Shown here in pieces: positions 2,587 to 61,701 of a stretch of DNA of 64,000 nt (its first letter is position 1; every line of letters starts with the position of its first letter). The stretch is taken from the IMG/VR virus record IMGVR_UViG_3300042922_001018. The stretch is one strand, 5' to 3'. Source of the stretch: a virus (lineage: Duplodnaviria > Heunggongvirae > Uroviricota > Caudoviricetes). Position numbers and translations under genes: made by a program. The notes below the pieces were generated by a model. It made no database searches, was not told where the DNA came from, and worked only from the letters and a program-made list of their open reading frames with translations.

Positions 2587-4125
2587 ATGTCAACTGATTC
2601 CGTATGGGGCGGTGCTCCGTCCGCCGAGGCGTTCCCGCCCCCGCAGCAGCGAGAGCCGCACCCCGTTCAGGTTCCCACACCTGTTCCCCAGCAGGCCGTC
2701 CAGCCACAGCCGCTCACCAGGGCTGAACAGCGCCAGGCCGCAGCCTCGGTCGCGGCGCCTACCCCGGTTCCGGTGCCCGTCCCGGTCCCTCAGCCAGTCG
2801 CTCCTGACGCCGCGCCGCAGGCAGCTCCCGCAGCTCCTCAGCCCGTAGCTCCCCAGCCTGTCGCCGCCGCTCCTGCTCCGGTGGCAGCCCAGCCGCCGCA
2901 GCAGGTACAGCCGCTTCAGACGGTGAAGGTCGGAGAGGCCGCAGCGCGGTTCACGGAGGCACAGCTCGGTGGTGCGCGCGTGAAGTTCGAGCACATCATC
3001 GGTGTCGCGGCCGGTATGGGTGTCTCGGACATCCACATCGTTGGCGACTCGCCTCTTCGTGTGCAGAAGGCGGGTGCTGTTGTGACCATCGACGGCATCT
3101 ACGTCACGAACCAGGAAATCCTGATGTTCGTCGAGATGTACGGCAAGCAGCGCGGTGGTGCACACGAACTGGAACACGGCCGGAAGGGAACAGTCGAGTG
3201 TATGACGCAGGTCGGCGATGTCCGACTGCGTATGACGTACGTCCGCGAGGTTCACGGATTCGGCTGCACCGCTCGTATCGTGCCGGGTGACCCGCCCAGC
3301 ATCCACAGCGGCGTATTCGAGGACAACCCGATTCCGCAGAAGCTCATCGACATCACGATGGGCACCCGTGGCGGTGGCCTCATCATCGCAGAGGGACCGA
3401 CGGGTTCTGGTAAGACGACGCTCATCGCAGCTCTGCTGCGCGAGGTGAACGACAACCTCGAACGTCACATCTACACCATCGAAGACCCCATCGAGTTCTT
3501 GCACCGCTCGAACCGTTCGCTGGTTACCCAGCGCGAGGTCGGCGAGCACGCGGAGTCCATCCCGAGCGCTCTGCGTACTTCGCTGAGGTACAAGCCGCAC
3601 ATCATTCTCGTCGGTGAGCTTCTGGACCTGGAGACGGTCAAGGGCGCTATCGAAGCGGCGAACAAGGGTCACCTCATCTTCGCGACCTCGCACGCCTCGT
3701 CGGCGGAGGAAGGCGTCTCGGCGCTGGTGAACCAGTTCCCCGGTTCCGAGCAGAAGCAGATTCAGGTGGCCCTCTCGCAGGCGTTGAAGGCGGTCGTGGT
3801 GCAGCGACTCATCCCTCGTGTCGGCGGCGGTCTCGTACCGGCTCGTGAGCTTCTGCTGAACACCATCCCGGTGGCACTGAAGATTCGCGAGGGTAGCTTC
3901 CAGCAGCTCTCCCAGGCTATGAAGCCGACGGACAACATGTTCAAGTTCGAGAACGACCTGGCGCGCCTCATCCACGAGGGTCTGGTGGATGTCGAAGACG
4001 CGAAGCAGTTCGCGAACGACCGCAAGGAGCTGTACTCCAACGTGGACATGTACGTCCGCGAGCACGGCATGGACGCTCGCGTTCGTGAGCTGTTCACGGA
4101 TGACGAGAAGGGCATCGCGCGGTAA
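2587..4125 (+). CDS. pilT: PilT-family retraction ATPase with a Pro/Gln/Ala-rich N-terminal extension
   Basis: SDIHI, GPTGSGKTT, HIYTIEDPIEFLH, QREVGEH, ALRTSLRYKPHIILVGE, ATSH, PVALKIRE (AIRNLIRE-like); no Zn motif. Confidence 0.92.
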   Translation: MSTDSVWGGAPSAEAFPPPQQREPHPVQVPTPVPQQAVQPQPLTRAEQRQAAASVAAPTPVPVPVPVPQPVAPDAAPQAAPAAPQPVAPQPVAAAPAPVAAQPPQQVQPLQTVKVGEAAARFTEAQLGGARVKFEHIIGVAAGMGVSDIHIVGDSPLRVQKAGAVVTIDGIYVTNQEILMFVEMYGKQRGGAHELEHGRKGTVECMTQVGDVRLRMTYVREVHGFGCTARIVPGDPPSIHSGVFEDNPIPQKLIDITMGTRGGGLIIAEGPTGSGKTTLIAALLREVNDNLERHIYTIEDPIEFLHRSNRSLVTQREVGEHAESIPSALRTSLRYKPHIILVGELLDLETVKGAIEAANKGHLIFATSHASSAEEGVSALVNQFPGSEQKQIQVALSQALKAVVVQRLIPRVGGGLVPARELLLNTIPVALKIREGSFQQLSQAMKPTDNMFKFENDLARLIHEGLVDVEDAKQFANDRKELYSNVDMYVREHGMDARVRELFTDDEKGIAR

Positions 4126-4218: not shown

Positions 4219-4686
4219 ATGAACTCTTTCGCCCGTGGCTCAATCTTCGTCGTCAGCTCCATCATCGGTCTTACCGCGCTGGTCGGATGCACGTCTTCGA
4301 CCCCGGCTCCGGTAGCGACCACTGAGACACCGATTTCGAGTGGCATTTATGTGGAGGCTCTGGCGACTGCCTTCCCCTCTGCGACTGAGATTGTCGCGTC
4401 CTCCGGAGGGACCGCCCCAACACCGGAGCTGACAGTTTTCGTCACCGTCCTGCCCGAGACAGAAGTCGGCCCGGAACAGGTACGTAGCGCTGTCGATGCG
4501 GTCTGCGACGTGGATGAGGGAGCGCACCGGCTTCTCTCGCTCTCAGTGGCCCGTGAAGGGTCGGAGAGCGGCATCTTGACGCCAGAGGACTACATCGACA
4601 CAGAAGCTCTCCTGGACGCTGCATTCCCCGAGGAGGGCAAGGTCTCGGCCAGCGGCATTGTCGTGCTGGAAGAGGCTTGCGCCTGA
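4219..4686 (+). CDS. lipoprotein (leaderless)
   Basis: TATGCT-N6-ATG; signal peptide with lipobox LVGC. Confidence 0.75.
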   Translation: MNSFARGSIFVVSSIIGLTALVGCTSSTPAPVATTETPISSGIYVEALATAFPSATEIVASSGGTAPTPELTVFVTVLPETEVGPEQVRSAVDAVCDVDEGAHRLLSLSVAREGSESGILTPEDYIDTEALLDAAFPEEGKVSASGIVVLEEACA

Positions 4687-5855: not shown

Positions 5856-6445
5856 GCGCCGTGCGTCGGCCCGCGTTCTTTGTCGTGCCTGCGATGGCCC
5901 TAGCGCTCGTCCTAACGGCCTGTGGCTCCACGGAGACGCCCGAGCCAGTTTCGTCGCCCACAGAGGCCGTCAGCGGCTCCCAGGAGCCTTCTGTCGGTGA
6001 TGTGGTCGTGCCAGAGCCGGGAGCGACACAAGTCCCCTCCTGGTCTCAGGAACCTCGGCCATACCCGATGCGCGATGGGACGTTCGTTCTGGTCGCTCCC
6101 GGTGTCCCGCTTCCTGAGTCTGCCCGGCTGGACATGGAAGCTCGCGTCGCGGCCGTAACGCCTGCGACGCTGGAGGATAGCCCGGAAGTGGTGGACGCTG
6201 TCTTCTCGAACTTCTCTCGTCTTGCACAGACGCTACGTAGCGAGACCGGCCGGGCGGTGGTCATCATCGCGCACACCGTCTTGCCTTCGACAGGGCGTGA
6301 CCGATGGGTCCATTTCGGTGGGACGGCTCGTGAGAACATCCCTGCTCCGGAGTCTCTGACGGGTACTGAAGTTACCGTGGAAGAGTACCAGGAGAAGGTC
6401 TTCGAGCGCTCGAATGAGGACTATTTCGACGTGTTCATTCGATGA
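5852..6445 (+). CDS. lipoprotein, paralog family A (2 of 3)
   Basis: Lipobox LTAC; RPYPMRDGTFVLV...PLP...TGR. Confidence 0.8.
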   Translation: MSAVRRPAFFVVPAMALALVLTACGSTETPEPVSSPTEAVSGSQEPSVGDVVVPEPGATQVPSWSQEPRPYPMRDGTFVLVAPGVPLPESARLDMEARVAAVTPATLEDSPEVVDAVFSNFSRLAQTLRSETGRAVVIIAHTVLPSTGRDRWVHFGGTARENIPAPESLTGTEVTVEEYQEKVFERSNEDYFDVFIR

Positions 6446-21055: not shown

Positions 21056-21850
21056 TTAGAAGATGACGCCCAGTTCCTCGGGTGTGGGTGCGTACATCTG
21101 GCCGAAGTACGGGATGGCGATGACGGCAATGACGGTCGCCAACGCCAGGAAGATGCCGAAGGGGACGCCTGTGTCTCCACCCGCGTTCTTGCGGATGCTC
21201 TTGAACAGCGCGCGCAGCAAGGTCCAGACGGTGCTGGTAAGGAAGGCGAGGAAGAGCCACGCGACGACGGCCAGTGCGCCCACGAGCCAGACAGCTCCCA
21301 TGTCACTCGGATTGTCCGGCGAGATGATGGGCGTACCGTACGCAATGCCGAGGGAACCCACCCAGAACGCCAGCGATGGCGCCAGCTTCACATCCCCCAT
21401 GCCCATCTGCTTCGCGAACAGGAACGAGAGGACGAGGAACACTACGCCGACGGCAAGTGCAATGGCCGCGCCGACGAGGAGGGAGATGACCCAGTGTTCC
21501 GTCTCGTACATGAGAGAGAAGGGGAGCACGACGAGCGAGAAGACGGCCGTGTAGCCCGTCAAGACGTTCGGCAGCGTGCGGTAGTAGTAGTCGGTCGCGG
21601 CGAATAGCGCCAGCAGTCCGAAGAGACCTGCGATAGCCGGAATGAGCGTGTACGCCCCGGTCAGGAACGCGGCCAGAGCTGCGGCGAGACCTGCTACTGT
21701 GCCCATGAGGGGCAGGTTGATGACGTGCTCCGGGTCACGAGGCTTGACGGCGTAGCGTCCAGCGAACACCGTGTGGAGCCAGGCAAACACGGCAGCAGCC
21801 ACAACGGCGGCAAGGAGTATCCAGTCGAACTCAGCAGTCATGACCATCAT
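21056..21850 (-). CDS. pilD: prepilin peptidase (A24 family), apparently without the Zn/methylase domain
   Basis: Multi-TM; first Asp in ATDYYYRTLPN; GMGDVKL; VPFGIFL; no CxxC pairs. Confidence 0.88.
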   Translation of the reverse strand: MMVMTAEFDWILLAAVVAAAVFAWLHTVFAGRYAVKPRDPEHVINLPLMGTVAGLAAALAAFLTGAYTLIPAIAGLFGLLALFAATDYYYRTLPNVLTGYTAVFSLVVLPFSLMYETEHWVISLLVGAAIALAVGVVFLVLSFLFAKQMGMGDVKLAPSLAFWVGSLGIAYGTPIISPDNPSDMGAVWLVGALAVVAWLFLAFLTSTVWTLLRALFKSIRKNAGGDTGVPFGIFLALATVIAVIAIPYFGQMYAPTPEELGVIF

Positions 21851-25313: not shown

Positions 25314-26738
25314 TCATACTTCCGTCAAACCAAGGAACATATCGTAAATTGGCAGGTACGTGGACACGATGACCAGGACCATGATGAGACCCACGGCGCC
25401 GTTCGCGATAGGCTGGAGAGCCGTGGTGAGGTTCTCCGTGCGCTTGTGCGCTTCACGTCGGTAGAAGTCGGTGAGGTTCGCGAGCGCCTTGATTTCAGAA
25501 CCGGAGTCGAAACCGTTGCGCATGATGAAGCCAGCGGACGGCGGGATGAGGTAGCCGTCGGCGACGCCTGCGAAGTCGGAAGTACCGTTGTCCATGCGGC
25601 GGATGTGCGCGAGAAGGTGGTACTTGTACGCGGCGTTCGAGGAGGCTTCCGCAGCCGTCTTCAGTGCCTCGCGGTCGGACATACCGACTTCGAGGAGACC
25701 TGACAGGATGGAGAACACCTGGACGAGACGCTGCGACTGGAGCACCTTACCGAGGATGGGCACCTTCACGCTCATCCGGCCCAGCTTCATGCGAAGCCGC
25801 TCGTTGTAACGTCCCCAGAACTTGTAGTAGATGAACCACGAGATGCCCGAGACGATGGCGATAGCACCGACCCAGATGAGGCCCGTTCCGAGGTCCATGA
25901 CGAACTGAGACAGCGGCGGAAGCGGCTTGCCGAGGGACTCGAACATGTCCGCGAACACCGGCAGAACGAACAGGATGACCGCGTAGAGGAACAGGATGAT
26001 GACCGTGAAGAGGATGATGGGCTGCATGGTCGCGGACTTGATTTTCTGCTTCAAGTCCTGGCCTTCCAGCATGATTTCCGCGCCCTTCTTCAGGTTCACG
26101 GCCTCCGCACCGGACTGGGCACCAACGTGCAGAAGGTCCGCCACGATGCGAGGGAAAATCTTCTCCTCCTCGCGCATAGCGGCGGAGAACGACTTCTGAC
26201 CAGACGCGACAAGCTGGTACATGCGGGCGTAGGCGTTGCCCAGCTCGGTCTTCTTGTACTGCTCTGCCAGCGTCGCGAGCGGCCGTGTCTCACCACGGGC
26301 CGTTTCGAGCATTAGAGCGAGGATGCGGAGGGACTCCGCTACCTCAACCGGCTTGACGTTCTTGTCGAACTCCAGCCATTGCGGGCGGCGGGAAACCTTC
26401 TCCTTGACGGGACGCGCAGCCTTCTCGATGAGTTCGCGGAGAATCTTGTCCTGCTGCGCCTTCTGCGAGGCTTCGCGAGCTTCCAGCTTCTCGCGGTTCT
26501 TCTCCGAGGTCTTGCGCTGCTTCTCCAGACCGGCGCGTTCGCGAGCGAGCTGAGCCTCGGTCTGGACCTTCGGCTGCTTGGCAGCTTCGGTGTCGCGCTT
26601 GCCCTGTTCCTTCTGGTTTCGGGCGCGCTCCTTCTCCATCCGAGCCTGCTCTTTTGCGAACTCCTTGTCGCGCTTCGCCTGCTCCTTAGGGGACAGGTCG
26701 GAAACGACTCCGGGCGGGGTGTCCGGGTTAAGCGTCAT
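25314..26738 (-). CDS. pilC: PilC/GspF-family pilus platform protein
   Basis: Two T2SSF repeats; IKSATMQP-TM-VLPVFADMF..LP.LS; KVPILG; C-terminal LQP...TYLPIY. Confidence 0.9.
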   Translation of the reverse strand: MTLNPDTPPGVVSDLSPKEQAKRDKEFAKEQARMEKERARNQKEQGKRDTEAAKQPKVQTEAQLARERAGLEKQRKTSEKNREKLEAREASQKAQQDKILRELIEKAARPVKEKVSRRPQWLEFDKNVKPVEVAESLRILALMLETARGETRPLATLAEQYKKTELGNAYARMYQLVASGQKSFSAAMREEEKIFPRIVADLLHVGAQSGAEAVNLKKGAEIMLEGQDLKQKIKSATMQPIILFTVIILFLYAVILFVLPVFADMFESLGKPLPPLSQFVMDLGTGLIWVGAIAIVSGISWFIYYKFWGRYNERLRMKLGRMSVKVPILGKVLQSQRLVQVFSILSGLLEVGMSDREALKTAAEASSNAAYKYHLLAHIRRMDNGTSDFAGVADGYLIPPSAGFIMRNGFDSGSEIKALANLTDFYRREAHKRTENLTTALQPIANGAVGLIMVLVIVSTYLPIYDMFLGLTEV

Positions 26739-33333: not shown

Positions 33334-34194
33334 TCAGTCGTCGCTGAAGCCCCAGTCGTCATCCTCATCGTAGTCGTCGTCGTCCTCATCGTAGTGAGTC
33401 TCGGTGTACTCGACATCGGAGGCTTCGAGAACGACGTAGCGGGTGACGCGCACCTTCTGGTAGTTGCAGTCGCGCGGGACGCTGACGACATCGCGAGGGT
33501 TCACGCGGACGCGGAGGAGCACGCCCTGAGCGAAGCCACTGGCGTATGCGTAGGTGCCTGCGTGCAGTCCTCGCGAGCAGCCACGGTCGATGTTCGAGTC
33601 CACGTACGAACGCTGAATCTCGATGGTCGAGCCGACCTGATTGAGGAGGTGTCCGCGGGTCGGGACGCCGTCGATGATGCCAGGGCCGGAGTGGATGCTG
33701 CGGTAGTCGCGACGGACACCCTTATACGCGATGAAGTCGCCGTCGTTGGTGATGGCGAAGTCGAAGCGGCGCAGGAAGCCGTAGAGCGACTGACGGGACG
33801 CCTCGGAGGGGTTCTGGTAGAGCTTCTCCAGGAACCGCACTGCGGGCTTCCACTTGTCCTCATCGCCGATGCCGTACTTCTCGATGGTACGGCGGATGAA
33901 GCGGGCGATGCCTTCGTCGATGGGGTCGTGGTCGTAGAGGACGTTCGTGCCGTCGTACGTGATGTTGTCGGAGAGCTTCGCGAGCCGGTCACCGATGACG
34001 ACTGCCAGCGAGAGAAGCTCCTCGATGCGTTCGATGTCGTCGGTCTTCTCCACCTCCAGCAGCTCCAGCACCCGGTTGTAATGAGGGCTGTCGCTCAGGA
34101 CGGTCAGCGGAAGGCCCGTCGGCCGATAGATGGTGATGGCCGATGGGATGTTCTCGCCCTCGCCGGGCGTGTACGTGCTGTACGGAAGTACCAT
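33334..34194 (-). CDS. rIIB: rIIB-like protein
   Basis: NPS...LYGFL...ITNDGDFIAYKGV...CSRGLHAG...VNPRDVVSVPRD. Confidence 0.9.
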   Translation of the reverse strand: MVLPYSTYTPGEGENIPSAITIYRPTGLPLTVLSDSPHYNRVLELLEVEKTDDIERIEELLSLAVVIGDRLAKLSDNITYDGTNVLYDHDPIDEGIARFIRRTIEKYGIGDEDKWKPAVRFLEKLYQNPSEASRQSLYGFLRRFDFAITNDGDFIAYKGVRRDYRSIHSGPGIIDGVPTRGHLLNQVGSTIEIQRSYVDSNIDRGCSRGLHAGTYAYASGFAQGVLLRVRVNPRDVVSVPRDCNYQKVRVTRYVVLEASDVEYTETHYDEDDDDYDEDDDWGFSDD

Positions 34195-34224: not shown

Positions 34225-36645
34225 TCACTCTACGACGTTGAGAAGCTGGTCGTAGGCAGCGTTCACGTAGAGCACCGCGTGCTTGATGCGACCGTCTCCG
34301 CGCTCCAGCCCAGACAGCAGCGGGTACCGCTCGATGATGGTCAGCTCAGTGATGTAATCGTGAACGGCAAGAACACGCTCGCGCTGGTCTTCAGTCAGCC
34401 CGAGGGTGTGAACGTTCTGCTGCACCGTCGTAGTGAAGTTCTCCTTGTCACCCCGCCAGTAGCTCACACGGGCGCCCTTGCGGAGCATCGCGAGGAACTG
34501 TTCGACGGAGTGAGAGGGACGCTTCCCGCCTTCGCGGAAGATAGGGTCTTTCAGCTCGTCAAGGCGTGGTTCCAGCTTCATCATGACGGCCTGGGACTTC
34601 GACTCGGTCCACAGCGCCATCGAGGTGTCAGCGGCTTCGAACTCATCCACGAGACTCTCGAAGAGTTCAGTGACGACCTCATCGAGCGGGCGAATACCGG
34701 GCGCGTCCTGGATGAGGTCTTCGAGCTTCTGTGAAGCACGCAGCACGATGACACGATAGCCCGCACGGCTGACCTGCTTCATGACATCGAGGGCGAGTTC
34801 TGCCGCCAGCCGTCCAGGGTGCGCGCCACGGTCCGCGAGCTTCGCCACGAGGTCTGCGGCGGTACCCGTTGCGGCCTGCGAGTCGGGAAGGACGTAAGCC
34901 ATCTTCCCGCCGCCACCGACACGCTCGTTCTCCAGGAGCGCCCGTTGGGTCTCGGTTGCATCCTCAGGGATTTCGACGCGCTCCCCCAGGATGAAAGTCT
35001 CCATCTCGGAGTTGTCCATCGAGTCGGTGTTCAGGCGCGCCCGGTCGGAGGTAGATGACAGCGCAGGCTGGAGGACCGAGTAGTCTCGCTTCTCGCGGGC
35101 CGCACGCTTCACGTAATCGCTTCGCGACCGCCGCGCCGAAGCATCCCGTCGGTACTCGCGCCGCTCCTCCATCGCCTCTTCTTCGATGCTCTGGACCGGC
35201 ACGAACTGTGCCAGCTCACGGAACCACGGGGAGAAGTCCTCGGGGCGTCCGAGCGTGATGTAGCGCGTCGTCGTTTCGACGGTCTCGACACCCGCGCGGC
35301 GGAGCCACCGCTCGTAGTCGCGGATGTCGCGTTCAGCGTTGCTGATGGTCTTCGAGTAGTCGTCGGGCAGCGTGTACACGACCGTCAGCTCATCGAGAGT
35401 CTCCGGGGCGTCGTGGGTGTCCGCGTGCTTGATGGAACGCGCCGTGTACCGGGTTCCGGTGTTGCGTGGTGCCACCTCAGACAGGTAAGGCGGGCGCACA
35501 TAACGAAGGTGGTCTTCCGGCGTCACGGCGATGAACTCGCCTGTTGCCTTGCCTTCCTCGTTGAGCCTCGGCCGCTCCTGGGCGGGGAAGAACGGGACTT
35601 CCCCCTTCGTAGGAATCACTTCACCGTGCCACGTGCTCAGCTCCTCCTGGAGGAACTTCGGAAGGGAGCTGTGGTAGAGCAGCGCTTCGTTCCGCGATGA
35701 GTTCTCGATGCGGGCCGCGGCCTGCACACGGAACTCTTCCACCCATGCCTCAGCGATGCGCGTGATGGTTTCGCGGCTCTGGGACACTGCCCGAATGCCT
35801 TCACGGCTGGTCTCAACCTTGACCTGGCCGTTCGGAAGTGAGAGGAAGATGCGCTTCGCACCGTCGATGCGCGACACAACGCCGCCGTCGAGTTCGGACG
35901 TGATGTCGTACCGGACGCCGAGAATCTCGGCTGACGCGCCCTTGAACCCTTCCACCGCGTCTTCGTCGAGTGCGTACCAGCCATGCTCACCGATGCGCTG
36001 GAACTGCGTCGGGTTGTGCAGGCTGTACTTCGGCGCCTGGCCGTTGACGAGGATGCTGCCGGGCGGGTAGGAGATGAACAGGTTCTCGGCAGCGGCCTGC
36101 ATCGCATCGACATCCGCAACGGGGATGCAGACGGTGACACCGTTCGGCTCATCCGTCTCCTCGTAACCGATGAACTTGAAGTCGGGGATGCCGTCTTCGT
36201 CGCGGATGACCGCGATGGTGTGCTTCTCGCCGTTCTTGATGGTGATGAGCGAGAACGACGGCGTGATAGCGAGTGGGGACTTGGACCCGAGGCCGAACCC
36301 GCCGCGTTCCTCATTCGAGCCACGCTTATCGGATGCGCCGACCTTCGAGTAGGTGTCGCGGATGTCCGCCTTCGACATCCCTGTTCCCCAGTCCTGAATC
36401 ACGAGGACCGGGTTGAGCGAACTCGGCAGAGAGATTTCGATGGGACGGGTCTGCTTCGCGCGGATGTGCGCGTCGGCAGCGTTCGACCCCAGCTCTTGCA
36501 GGATGGCTCGCCACGGGTTCTTGTACAGCGACTCCGAGATGGACTGGAGGAGGAAGACCGTAGCTTCCTCGTCGATGGTCAGCTTGATGCTGTCCTTGAC
36601 ATCGACGTTGTCTTCGACCGTACCCTTGATGCTTTCGATAATCAT
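34225..36645 (-). CDS. rIIA: rIIA-like protein (GHKL ATPase N-terminus)
   Basis: LYKNPWRAILQELGSNAADAH, DWGTGMS, GGFGLGSKSP; adjacent to rIIB. Confidence 0.88.
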   Translation of the reverse strand: MIIESIKGTVEDNVDVKDSIKLTIDEEATVFLLQSISESLYKNPWRAILQELGSNAADAHIRAKQTRPIEISLPSSLNPVLVIQDWGTGMSKADIRDTYSKVGASDKRGSNEERGGFGLGSKSPLAITPSFSLITIKNGEKHTIAVIRDEDGIPDFKFIGYEETDEPNGVTVCIPVADVDAMQAAAENLFISYPPGSILVNGQAPKYSLHNPTQFQRIGEHGWYALDEDAVEGFKGASAEILGVRYDITSELDGGVVSRIDGAKRIFLSLPNGQVKVETSREGIRAVSQSRETITRIAEAWVEEFRVQAAARIENSSRNEALLYHSSLPKFLQEELSTWHGEVIPTKGEVPFFPAQERPRLNEEGKATGEFIAVTPEDHLRYVRPPYLSEVAPRNTGTRYTARSIKHADTHDAPETLDELTVVYTLPDDYSKTISNAERDIRDYERWLRRAGVETVETTTRYITLGRPEDFSPWFRELAQFVPVQSIEEEAMEERREYRRDASARRSRSDYVKRAAREKRDYSVLQPALSSTSDRARLNTDSMDNSEMETFILGERVEIPEDATETQRALLENERVGGGGKMAYVLPDSQAATGTAADLVAKLADRGAHPGRLAAELALDVMKQVSRAGYRVIVLRASQKLEDLIQDAPGIRPLDEVVTELFESLVDEFEAADTSMALWTESKSQAVMMKLEPRLDELKDPIFREGGKRPSHSVEQFLAMLRKGARVSYWRGDKENFTTTVQQNVHTLGLTEDQRERVLAVHDYITELTIIERYPLLSGLERGDGRIKHAVLYVNAAYDQLLNVVE

Positions 36646-49921: not shown

Positions 49922-49966
49922 CGGTGCGCTCCTGTCTTGACGGCCGCGGATTTCACAACCGTGTTG

Positions 49967-50038
49967 TGGAGAGGGTGGGACTTGAACCCACATCCTTACG
50001 CTGAAGAACGCGTTGCTCTGAACCTGAGCTACCTCCCC
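49967..50038 (-). ncRNA. atypical tRNA-like RNA with an 8-nt anticodon loop
   Basis: Good acceptor, D and T arms; anticodon arm ACGC-GTTCTTCA-GCGT. Confidence 0.7.
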
Positions 50039-50896: not shown

Positions 50897-50971
50897 GATT
50901 GCAAGAGGGGACTTGAACCCCTGGCCCATACGCCTTGTGGCGTCGCTCTTCCAACTGAGCTACAAGCAATC
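50897..50971 (-). ncRNA. tRNA-like RNA with a 4-nt anticodon loop and extended acceptor
   Basis: D arm GCTC/GAGC; ACGCC-ACAA-GGCGT; T arm AGGGG-TTCAAGT-CCCCT; ends GATTGC/GCAATC. Confidence 0.7.
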
Positions 50972-50997
50972 GCAGGATGTGGAGTTATTGCGAGGGT

Positions 50998-51064
50998 GAG
51001 AGACCCTGGGATTCGAACCCGGCGCCCGAAGGCGCTTCACCCGCGTGCTCGCGTTCAGTCTCTC
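50998..51064 (-). ncRNA. mini tRNA-like RNA with a UUCG tetraloop in place of the anticodon
   Basis: GAGAGAC/GTCTCTC acceptor; GCGCC-TTCG-GGCGC; GGG-TTCGAAT-CCC. Confidence 0.6.
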
Positions 51065-51142
51065 GGCCGAATGGTTACAGCCATCCGGTTGTATCGCCCG
51101 CTGTAACGAGCGACATGTACAGCGTACCACACGTCTCAGACA

Positions 51143-51412
51143 TCACTGTCGTTCGTCGGAACGCTCGTTCAGGAAGGCGTGAAGCGCCTCATCGGACACC
51201 TTCGCGCGTACCGTCCGGGCATGCACCCAGCGCTTGATGTGGTTGGCATCATTCCACAGACCGCGGAACGCGGCGGGGAGGAAGTAGAACAGCGGCAGGA
51301 GAATCCAGAAACCGCCTGGCAGCCCGTTGTAGAGGAGGGGCATGGCGAAAATCCCCAGGAGCAGGGTCGCGATGAAAGTGGCTACGGGCCACCGTGACAT
51401 GAGCGCGCGCAT
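51143..51412 (-). CDS. small membrane protein (89 aa, leaderless)
   Basis: TACACT-N6-ATG; two TM helices. Confidence 0.6.
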   Translation of the reverse strand: MRALMSRWPVATFIATLLLGIFAMPLLYNGLPGGFWILLPLFYFLPAAFRGLWNDANHIKRWVHARTVRAKVSDEALHAFLNERSDERQ

Positions 51413-51443
51413 AGGGCGAGTGTACCACGGTTCCGCCGAAAGC

Positions 51444-51759
51444 GAACACACCTGTAAGCCGGGTTCTGTCCAGGACGCGAGTCCCTGGGCTGCCATCTTT
51501 CTGAAGCGCAGAGCGCCCCGCGGCTTAGCCGCTGCCACTTACCCGTCCATCATCGAGGCACGACGCCCTAGGACTGTTTGTGTTGCACCGGTCCTCACCC
51601 TACTTCTTAGGCTGGGCTTAGTGGTATGAAGGTGTCAAGTTCGGCACGTTAGTCACCGAATCAGTAACCAACGTGCCGACTCTGACACTCCCACATGGAT
51701 GTCGTGTTGGTGCCCGGACTTTCCTCAACGCTTATGCGCTGCGACAGCCTGGTGTGTTC
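51444..51759 (-). ncRNA. rnpB: RNase P RNA with a non-canonical specificity domain
   Basis: P1 GAACACACC/GGTGTGTTC; P2; P3; GAGGAAAGTCCGG and ACAGAACCCGGCTTA (P4); P5 GCACC/GGTGC-AA; P6 CACGAC/GTCGTG; GGGTAAG loop 15. Confidence 0.92.
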
Positions 51760-51837
51760 TGGAGGCGCTGACGGGATTTGAACCCGCGATTGTACGGTTT
51801 TGCAGACCGTTCCCTTTGGCCGCTCGGGCACAACGCC
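51760..51837 (-). tRNA. tRNA-Cys(GCA), CCA encoded
   Basis: ACGGT-CTGCAAA-ACCGT; U73. Confidence 0.95.
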
Positions 51838-51842
51838 GTGTA

Positions 51843-52418
51843 TCAGTCGTCTTCTGACGAACCGAAGAGGGAGGACAGCGGCCCCGGCTGTCCAGATTCA
51901 GGAGGGTTCTCGATGCCATGCACTGACAAGGCCGTGAAGAAGGTACAGATGGCGAACGCGAACGCGAAGATACCCACAGCCATCTTCCTGGCGTCCGAGA
52001 TTTCGCCAAGGGTGTCATCAAGACGCTCGCGGGGGAACTTGTCCCAGGCTTCCGGGTTCTCGGCCTTGTACGTTCTGACGAGCGACATGAGCAGCGAATC
52101 GGTCAACGGGGTGAACTTCTTCACCGCCCGGCTGTCGGCCGTCGGAAGCGCGTACATGCTCGACGCTGAAGGCAGGAGGATGCGTTCCAGCCGCGAGTAG
52201 ACATCACCGGGGCGGTAGATGACGACGGTCGCTGTAGATGATGCCCCAATGCTGGAAGCGTTCGTCGTCATCTTCACCCCGGACTTCGGGTCGATGATGA
52301 CGAACTTCCGGTCGATGACTCGGAGGATGTAGCGGTCTCCGAAGACGTGGTCTGCGGACGTTGCGATGTCCTCCCGGTAGTAAACCCGTTCCAGGCCGGT
52401 GATTTCGAGCTTAGCCAC
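51843..52418 (-). CDS. hypothetical protein with a C-terminal TM helix
   Basis: GTG start after a GGAGG RBS (MAKLEITG). Confidence 0.6.
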   Translation of the reverse strand: MAKLEITGLERVYYREDIATSADHVFGDRYILRVIDRKFVIIDPKSGVKMTTNASSIGASSTATVVIYRPGDVYSRLERILLPSASSMYALPTADSRAVKKFTPLTDSLLMSLVRTYKAENPEAWDKFPRERLDDTLGEISDARKMAVGIFAFAFAICTFFTALSVHGIENPPESGQPGPLSSLFGSSEDD

Positions 52419-52641
52419 GGTCAACCTCCAGTCGGCGAATGACGAGCCAGTACATCGCCTGTTGGAATCCGATGAGAACCGTGAGCGACACAATGGCCAT
52501 CGTGGCGTACGCGAAGATGTCGCCGTCGAGGAGGGACACGAAGTCGAAGATGTACGGCACGCCGCGCACGAGGAGCAGGAACACTGCGCCGATGGCGAAG
52601 AAGACGATACCGGCGCCGAGCGCCTGAAGCTGCTGCTTCAT
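52411..52641 (-). CDS. small membrane protein
   Basis: Two TM helices; coupled to neighbours. Confidence 0.6.
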   Translation of the reverse strand: MKQQLQALGAGIVFFAIGAVFLLLVRGVPYIFDFVSLLDGDIFAYATMAIVSLTVLIGFQQAMYWLVIRRLEVDRG

Positions 52642-58411: not shown

Positions 58412-58514
58412 ATGCTTGCGTCCGCGGACCCGCTCAACCCACGATGCTCTGCTGCGTTTCCGCCCTGAAGCTTGTCGTGAACGTCGCGCCCCGCGGACGC
58501 AAGTTGTGACAGTC

Positions 58515-61227: not shown

Positions 61228-61317
61228 CACGAACCGGACAGGCTACCCAGCCAGTCGTTTTACCAAGCCGTCTATGTGGCACAGGCGGGGACTCGAACCC
61301 CTTGCATCCGGTTCTCG
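61228..61317 (-). ncRNA. permuted tRNA-like RNA (YrlA-like order) abutting the tmRNA 3' end
   Basis: GAACCGGA...TCCGGTTC closing stem enclosing T arm GGGG-TTCGAGT-CCCC, a closed acceptor-like hairpin and a D-like segment. Confidence 0.55.
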
Positions 61318-61701
61318 TGGAGATGGGGGGAATCGAACCCCCGTCCATTGTCATCTTTCCAGGCCTTCTACGAGCGTATCCTCTTGTTCTTCCTGTCCGT
61401 CGCGGCGTTGGAGGCACCGGAGCGCGGGGACACCACACCCTCATACTCAGTACCGCCGAGTGTGAGACTCGGTACTGCGCCTGTGTCTTGGGTTTGATAC
61501 CGGGCCGTCCAGGTGTTCAGGCTACCTGATTGACGGTGCGGCAGACCTCATTGAGGCCGTCGCGGCTTACGCTGCGAGGGCGAGGTCGTTGCGAGTTGCG
61601 TTGGCATCTCTTGGTGGACTGGCATTGATGCGGGGTTACCAGACCAATCCCCGGCTCGCTTCTCCTCGAAGCAACTGACGATGTCGAAACCGGTCATCCC
61701 C
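61318..61701 (-). ncRNA. ssrA: tmRNA; tag peptide ANATRNDLALAA
   Basis: 5' GGGGATGACCGGTTTCGAC; 3' GGACGGGGGTTCGATTCCCCCCATCTCCA; G3:U70; internal tag ORF ending ALAA-TAA. Confidence 0.96.

Follow-up and report, generated by a model that had tools for sequence, protein, structure and literature searches.

RNase P RNA is customarily regarded as a universal chromosomal housekeeping gene. The bacterial type-A RNA (rnpB; Rfam family RF00010, with the M1 RNA of Escherichia coli and the RNA of Thermotoga maritima as examples) is encoded by a chromosomal single gene. Its conserved regions (CR) II and III normally read the D and T loops of tRNA (PMC4919922). The minimal RNase P RNA of Pyrobaculum (type P/T) is a natural RNA that keeps the catalytic (C) domain and is missing nearly the whole specificity (S) domain, while bacterial RNAs reduced to the C domain have been engineered by deletion in the laboratory (PMC4919922). 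The bacterial C domain alone, whether of type A or type B, cuts pre-tRNA with or without the protein subunit RnpA, at a lower rate and affinity (PMC4919922). Among phage-encoded RNAs, the theta ribozymes, which resemble that of hepatitis delta virus, lie in tRNA clusters and are tied to tRNA maturation (PMC10879173). Here we describe an RNA encoded on the minus strand at positions 51444 to 51759 of IMG/VR record IMGVR_UViG_3300042922_001018, a 64,000-nucleotide stretch of caudoviral DNA (hereafter, the window), and the family of 18 sequences that goes with it. The locus, on a large phage- or plasmid-like replicon from soil, probably encodes a functional RNase P catalytic RNA with a miniaturized S domain and a part in processing the pre-tRNAs of the array in which it lies.

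The window RNA shares with type-A RNAs P1 to P5, the P4 pseudoknot with its bulged U, the GCAA of J5/15, P15 with the GGU of L15, P16, the P6 pseudoknot, and CR-I, CR-IV, and CR-V. It differs from them in having no alignable P8 to P14 or CR-II/CR-III and no P17, in a P6 that reaches about 8 bp in the family, and in its position within the tRNA array of a mobile replicon, with no cognate rnpA nearby. Its likeness to the Pyrobaculum RNA is confined to the kept C domain and the nearly lost S domain: the latter RNA is archaeal and chromosomal and works with several archaeal proteins, whereas the window RNA is of bacterial type A, as seen in the GGU of L15 and in P6, and has no archaeal-type C domain. 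In contrast to the engineered C-domain RNAs, the reduction in this family is natural and conserved and comes with compensating changes, namely a long P6 and a conserved stub of the S domain. Theta ribozymes are small, self-cleaving, and of unrelated fold, and act on the 3' side of tRNAs (PMC10879173), whereas the window RNA belongs to the trans-acting RNase P type. The locus combines a C domain of type A with a shrunken S domain and lies within the tRNA array of a phage-like replicon. In our literature search, no publication describing an RNase P RNA encoded by a virus or plasmid came up, theta ribozymes (PMC10879173) being the nearest published concept, and in this respect an earlier note, made from the sequence alone, had rightly called an RNase P RNA on a mobile element unusual.

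A permissive cmscan of 51000-52200 matched RF00010 (RNaseP_bact_a) to 51439-51760 on the minus strand (91.5 bits, E = 3.1e-28, model positions 1 to 367). This bacterial class A model was the best-scoring RNase P model and the only one left after clan competition. In the gathering-threshold Rfam scan of the window RNase P was not reported, because 91.5 bits falls short of the cut-off of 100. Aligned to the model are P1, P2, P3, both P4 strands, P5, J5/15, P15/L15, the P18 position, CR-IV, the optional P19, and CR-V, while model positions ~75 to 213, which make up the S domain, are jumped (113 nt of sequence versus 140 model positions). The catalytic blocks read GAGGAAAGUCCGGGC in CR-I, GCAA in J5/15, GGGUA in L15, AGAUG in CR-IV, and ACAGAACCCGGCUUA in CR-V. 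The earlier note had placed an RNase P RNA within the same limits, which the P1 pair of G51759 with C51444 bears out, and had predicted that a search with RF00010 would give a C-domain match and an S-domain gap; this is the result obtained, and a normal S domain does not align. The features of the RNA and of the adjoining gene are as follows.

51444-51759, minus strand: whole RNase P RNA gene, 316 nt, from the P1 5' end to the P1 3' end; RF00010 match
51751-51759, minus strand: P1 5' strand, partner 51444-51452; 99% paired, 4 of 7 pairs compensatory
51743-51749, minus strand: P2 5' strand, partner 51488-51494; 100% paired, 6 of 7 pairs compensatory
51726-51741, minus strand: P3 hairpin, 6 bp, loop AUAA; from the covariance model, sequence reading, and family pairing
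51712-51726, minus strand: CR-I with the P4 5' strand, exact consensus; P4 100% paired, 6 of 8 pairs compensatory
51709-51712, minus strand: P5 5' strand CACC, partner GGUG at 51586-51589; family variants CACC/GGUG, CUCC/GGAG, and CUCGG/CCGAG
51701-51706, minus strand: P6 5' strand CACGAC, partner GUCGUG at 51559-51564; 8 bp in the family consensus and 6 bp in the window, from RNAalifold and pair counts
51697-51699, minus strand: tentative P7-like 5' strand UCC, candidate partner GGA at 51592-51594; hand comparison
51621-51694, minus strand: stem Hs, GUGG at 51691-51694 with CCAC at 51621-51624, invariant in 18 of 18, bearing the 66-nt rod insert 51625-51690
51595-51620, minus strand: S-domain remnant UAAGCCCAGCCUAAGAAGUAGGGUGA with stem Hm, CCC at 51614-51616 with GGG at 51598-51600; family alignment, Hm 96% paired
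51580-51585, minus strand: J5/15 CAA (A248 equivalent) and P15 5' strand CAC, with the P15 3' strand at 51536-51538; GCAAC invariant, one A-U to G-C change in P15
51545-51574, minus strand: P16, GUCC at 51571-51574 with GGAC at 51545-51548, enclosing the P6 3' strand; 99% paired, 2 pairs compensatory
51540-51544, minus strand: L15 GGGUA; CGGGU invariant in 18 of 18
51503-51532, minus strand: two hairpins in the P18 position, GCGG..CCGC and GGCGC..GCGCU, in the window/L103/L106 clade only; compensatory differences read by eye
51494-51498, minus strand: CR-IV core AGAUG (J18/2), invariant in 18 of 18
51471-51487, minus strand: clade-specific P19 hairpin, CAGGGAC..GUCCUG in the window versus CAGGAGC..GCUCUG in L103 and L106
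51455-51469, minus strand: CR-V with the P4 3' strand, exact consensus, pairing with CR-I
51760-51837, minus strand: tRNA-Cys(GCA) with encoded CCA, ending 1 base before the start of the RNase P RNA; same synteny in L103 and L106

Covariation strongly supports selection on this fold. The structure was built by hand, including the P4 and P6 pseudoknots, and evaluated on the 18-sequence alignment: 95.0% of cells hold standard pairs, versus 78.0% in column shuffles, none of 500 of which reaches the observed value, and pairing falls to 33 to 40% when the 3' partners are slid by 1 to 3 columns. Both sides have changed in 32 of the 55 pairs. The P4 pseudoknot, formed with its bulged U from CR-I and CR-V, shows compensatory changes, among them CCUCG/CGAGG in L099 and CGGGG/CCCCG in L100, and the class-A blocks J5/15 GCAA, the GGU loop of L15, and CR-IV AGAUG are present in invariant columns. 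The class-A P6 pseudoknot, which joins the strand 3' of P5 to the P16/P17 arm, is present in an extended form (95% paired, 7 of 8 pairs compensatory). A local P17 hairpin was considered in its place and rejected, being 83% paired with zero compensatory changes. Because P6 covaries whereas this hairpin does not, we read P17 as lost and P6 as roughly doubled in length. Of the landmarks listed in the earlier note (P1 to P6, both P4 strands, L15, P16/17, and P19), all but P17 stand; the strand assigned to P17 is the 3' strand of the long-range P6.

Members of the family were gathered in three ways. By blastn of the locus against GenBank phages, four ~192-kb phages of Microbacterium foliorum, A3Wally, Zooman, and Big4 among them, were matched in unannotated spacer. 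In A3Wally this is a 221-nt spacer between two tRNA genes that matches RF00010 with the S domain skipped (72 bits, E = 8.5e-22), so that the RNase P RNA fills the gap exactly. Scanning IMG/VR with the P4 5' strand gave 76 loci, eight of which were scored; they match RF00010 over 207 to 325 nt with 64 to 209 bits and have tRNA genes around them, and six are on contigs of 100 to 463 kb. Further members were recovered from metagenomes with a motif of the residual S region. All 18 sequences lie inside tRNA arrays: 11 of 11 metagenomic members that were scanned, A3Wally, L038, and L077 by annotation or Rfam, and Zooman, Big4, and L080 by flanking annotated tRNA genes. The family motif had no match in 185,579 reference prokaryote genomes. 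In A3Wally and two contigs (96% and 89% complete) the RNA is single copy, always below the Rfam cut-off. Fifteen IMG/VR loci found with the remnant motif alone (L081 to L095) were dropped, having no P4 strands nearby and a count close to chance expectation, and three candidates from the metagenome scan (L097, L105, and L107) were rejected as AT-rich chance matches. Megablast of 24 kb of the window against the phage collection gave no match, and the plasmid collection gave only tRNA-sized matches, to Mycobacterium plasmids.

In every member, the region between the P5 strands consists of a tentative 2- to 3-bp closing helix, the invariant GUGG/CCAC stem, and a conserved 3' module of ~30 nt, which is the constant part of the region. 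The module reads UAAGC(C/A)CAG...AAG.AG.GGUG(A/C)AGG in most members, with GGUGAGG in the Microbacterium-phage clade, and in five sequences of that clade its stem Hm has exchanged C-G for A-U, a compensatory change. The P7-like helix is paired in 46% of cells as aligned by MAFFT, a low value because the Microbacterium clade is misaligned there; a hand count gives U-A, G-C, C-G, and G-U pairs in 11 sequences and A-A in seven, which is suggestive. The lineage of the window is characterized by the GUGG/CCAC stem with its variable insert, a UAAGC..GGGUGA module, and its clade-specific P18-position and P19 hairpins.

A class-A S domain with P8 to P14 and CR-II/CR-III (ACAGAAA in J11/12, GUGAAA in J12/13) was not found. 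The statement in the earlier note that the ACAGAAA/TGAAA T-loop motifs are missing therefore stands for the canonical motifs and not for degenerate look-alikes: to the eye, GC(A/C)CAG(A) looks like the P11/CR-II segment of the consensus, GCcACAGAAA, and GUAGGGUGA like its J12/13 sequence, GUAAGGGUGAAA. L064, found only through P4, has AGUAAGGUG at the module position. A profile of canonical S domains (34 sequences, nhmmer) did not match the family, a test that is uninformative for such short remnants. On these likenesses the remnant would be a P12-less core of the T-loop platform (P11/CR-II/CR-III); equally fair is a P7/P8/P9 stub, as hinted by L051, which is reduced differently and keeps an apparent P8 and P9.

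The array around the gene contains candidate substrates. On the minus strand of the window, the gathering-threshold Rfam scan places 35 tRNAs, a transfer-messenger RNA (tmRNA) at 61315-61701, and a small signal recognition particle (SRP) RNA at 58412-58503, in accord with the 36 tRNA calls and the tmRNA of ARAGORN. tRNA, tmRNA, and SRP RNA are natural RNase P substrates, and here all three occur on one replicon with an RNase P RNA. The tmRNA scores 116.8 bits, with the tag peptide ANATRNDLALAA, and the SRP (4.5S) RNA scores 40.4 bits against a cut-off of 40. L106 matches the window in tRNA order, in an identical tmRNA tag, and in its SRP RNA (6205-6301, plus strand, 43.3 bits); in both, the SRP RNA adjoins the 5' end of tRNA-Ser(UGA). 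The 35 tRNA genes scored by Rfam all lie on the minus strand between 49966 and 63943; 33 are ordinary and two are atypical. In the gene at 50897-50969 (minus strand), a 4-nt loop caps the 5-bp anticodon stem and the acceptor stem contains two U-U mismatches; the gene at 49966-50038 (minus strand) reads as tRNA-Lys(CUU), its anticodon loop being closed by a G-A pair.

Across the 35 genes, U occupies position -1 in 20 and C in nine, position -2 is mostly A, so that leaders end in UAU, UAC, or CAU, and the first trailer base is C in 35 of 35; CCA is encoded in three of 35. Such uniform flanks could be a processing signature. L15 is, in type-A enzymes, the pairing site for the tRNA 3' CCA, and the flank features appear to fit recognition by J5/15 and L15, i.e., type-A rules.

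As to the protein partner, the search for rnpA that the earlier note had proposed turned up no plausibly coding frame in the window with an RnpA-like RNR motif, and PF00825 was not found in the complete A3Wally genome or in the contigs that are 96% and 89% complete, while control genomes score. Because no RnpA gene was found in the window or in these three near-complete relatives, the RNA probably uses the RnpA protein of the host. RNase P RNA and protein subunits of different species can complement each other (PMC4919922).

We therefore favor, as probable, a functional ribozyme that would act as follows. The RNA would be cotranscribed within the minus-strand tRNA/tmRNA/4.5S RNA array; its 5' end would be freed by 3' processing of the upstream tRNA-Cys. 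In the Microbacterium phages, the cut that RNase P makes at the tRNA that follows would free the 3' end of the RNA. After assembly with host RnpA, it would remove the 5' leaders of the pre-tRNAs of the replicon, and possibly those of the tmRNA and 4.5S precursors too. Its grip on the substrate would come mainly from the acceptor stem, position -1, the 3' end, and protein-leader contact, and not from a full elbow-reading S domain, which would be reduced to a three-way stub of a short closing helix, an invariant 4-bp insert-tolerant stem, and the ~30-nt module. The long P6, together with the P18-position and P19 hairpins in the clade of the window, may compensate for lost interdomain braces. The outcome would be a tRNA-processing capacity raised or secured for ~36 extra tRNA genes.

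Several points weigh against this interpretation. The score lies below the Rfam gathering cut-off, as do those of relatives at 64 to 85 bits. Because the pattern CCACUAAGC...GCAAC..CAAACAG served to collect part of the family, these blocks are invariant in part by construction, and independently so only in the seven sequences found by blastn or the P4 motif; the covarying helices lie outside the search pattern. The rnpA search on this replicon covers 64 kb of a larger molecule, the rest of which may carry an rnpA gene, and no RNA sequencing run is among the runs listed as matching the stretch. The S remnant could either contact the tRNA elbow or brace the core.

A broader proposal is that the replicon carries a largely private stable-RNA toolkit of ~36 tRNAs, tmRNA, 4.5S RNA, and a mini RNase P, in which A at -2, a pyrimidine at -1, and a first trailer base that is C in 35 of 35 genes form a uniform flank code by which an elbow-blind ribozyme selects its own substrates, giving an element-specific RNA-processing system with little dependence on the host enzyme. 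We regard this as tentative and, as it stands, rather unlikely. If true, the ~30-nt stub could be smaller than any other natural module with which an RNase P braces the elbow or its core.

The earlier note had proposed instead that the long rod hairpin replaces the S domain and alters or relaxes substrate choice in favor of the odd tRNA-like RNAs nearby. The hairpin itself is real: at 51621-51694 (74 nt) it folds at -42.8 kcal/mol (z = -7.7), and the small hairpin beside it is formed by CCC 51614-51616 and GGG 51598-51600. Nine rod pairs are preserved between the window and L103 by double changes, despite 54% identity inside the rod (90% outside it), long rods have arisen at the same site in L101 and L102, and the two atypical tRNA-like genes exist. 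However, the insert on the one invariant stem measures 5, 17, 19, 21, 23, 29, 30, 31, 60, 62, 66, and 66 nt among the 18 sequences, with 5 nt in the Microbacterium phages, 17 to 31 nt in most others, and 60 to 66 nt in the window, L103, L101, and L102. Moreover, L106, with the same array order and tmRNA tag and 92% identity to the window outside the rod, has an insert of only 19 nt; L104 and L101 show the same kind of difference, and nearly all of the tRNA genes are ordinary. Because insert length varies so widely, even between close relatives, the rod reads as a labile, fast-evolving expansion segment, with the module as the constant element, and its role as an S-domain substitute is improbable. 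The "one small hairpin" that the earlier note passed over belongs to this module. Neither a second copy of the rod in the window, expected of a repeated mobile hairpin, nor a tRNA or other family match inside 51439-51760, expected of a nested tRNA-like insert, was found.

The RNA might also be a decoy or regulator that soaks up host RnpA or pre-tRNAs, or a structured spacer in a polycistronic transcript. The lack of rnpA on relatives, the largely missing S domain, and the tight flanking by tRNAs would all suit such roles, but the universal blocks of the catalytic core are all invariant, including L15 and J5/15, which serve substrate and metal positioning and not protein binding alone, and P4 is kept by compensatory changes that neither a spacer nor a sponge needs, so we consider this very improbable. 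A decaying, functionless fragment of host rnpB that lost its S domain by deletion might account for the subthreshold score, the unaligned S domain, and the silent S-domain profile, but this is the most improbable reading of all, given the same reduced architecture across clades sharing ~60% identity, the abundant compensatory changes, and the single copy at a conserved place in the tRNA arrays of cultured phages.

The replicon itself is of actinobacterial type. It encodes homologues of rIIA (34225-36645) and rIIB (33334-34194), the rIIA protein sharing ~32% identity with its counterparts in Microbacterium, Rhodococcus, and Streptomyces phages, as well as other phage-type genes for a UvrD-type helicase, a multi-zinc-finger HNH endonuclease, a C5 methylase, and a Macro-domain protein. 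Beside rIIA/rIIB stands a Tad/type IV pilus-like set, unusual for a phage, of two T2SSE ATPases (1353-2510 and 2587-4125, plus strand), an A24 prepilin peptidase (21056-21850, minus strand), and a T2SSF protein (25314-26738, minus strand). No virion gene was seen in the 64-kb window. With rII and other phage-type genes, Tad-like genes, and no virion gene in the window, the carrier is therefore called phage- or plasmid-like. Its DNA occurs in soil metagenomes, and three soil-metagenome DNA runs match the stretch and may be where it came from.

A promoter and terminator scan of 50900-52600 found neither. The ~40 nt that follow the RNase P RNA (51400-51443, minus strand) are conserved in L103 and L106 (GGAACC..UGGUACACU.., with AUG a few bases on) and resemble an extended -10 promoter of a leaderless mRNA for a small membrane protein, the long open reading frame of which is listed as 51143-51538. 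Two other IMG/VR contigs bear further RNAs: L035, a 202-kb phage contig with a 298-nt RNase P RNA, has a group I intron match at 3325-3528 (minus strand, 68.4 bits), and L012, on a contig of 463 kb, has a subthreshold tmRNA match of 76 nt at 4494-4569 (plus strand, 41.3 bits against 47), ~145 nt after a 321-nt RNase P RNA without P13/P14.

Current phage annotation and Rfam thresholds overlook mini RNase P RNA genes of this kind. The cultured carriers, Microbacterium phages growing on M. foliorum, make their function directly testable, and as compact ribozymes (~215 to 320 nt) the RNAs may be of structural and engineering use. The family would form a natural S-domain deletion series, in which one site accepts insertions and a long P6 compensates, and which shows the minimal needs of a bacterial RNase P. 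A conserved, covarying version on phages and related replicons would mean that mobile elements bring, besides tRNAs, a catalytic RNA for tRNA maturation.
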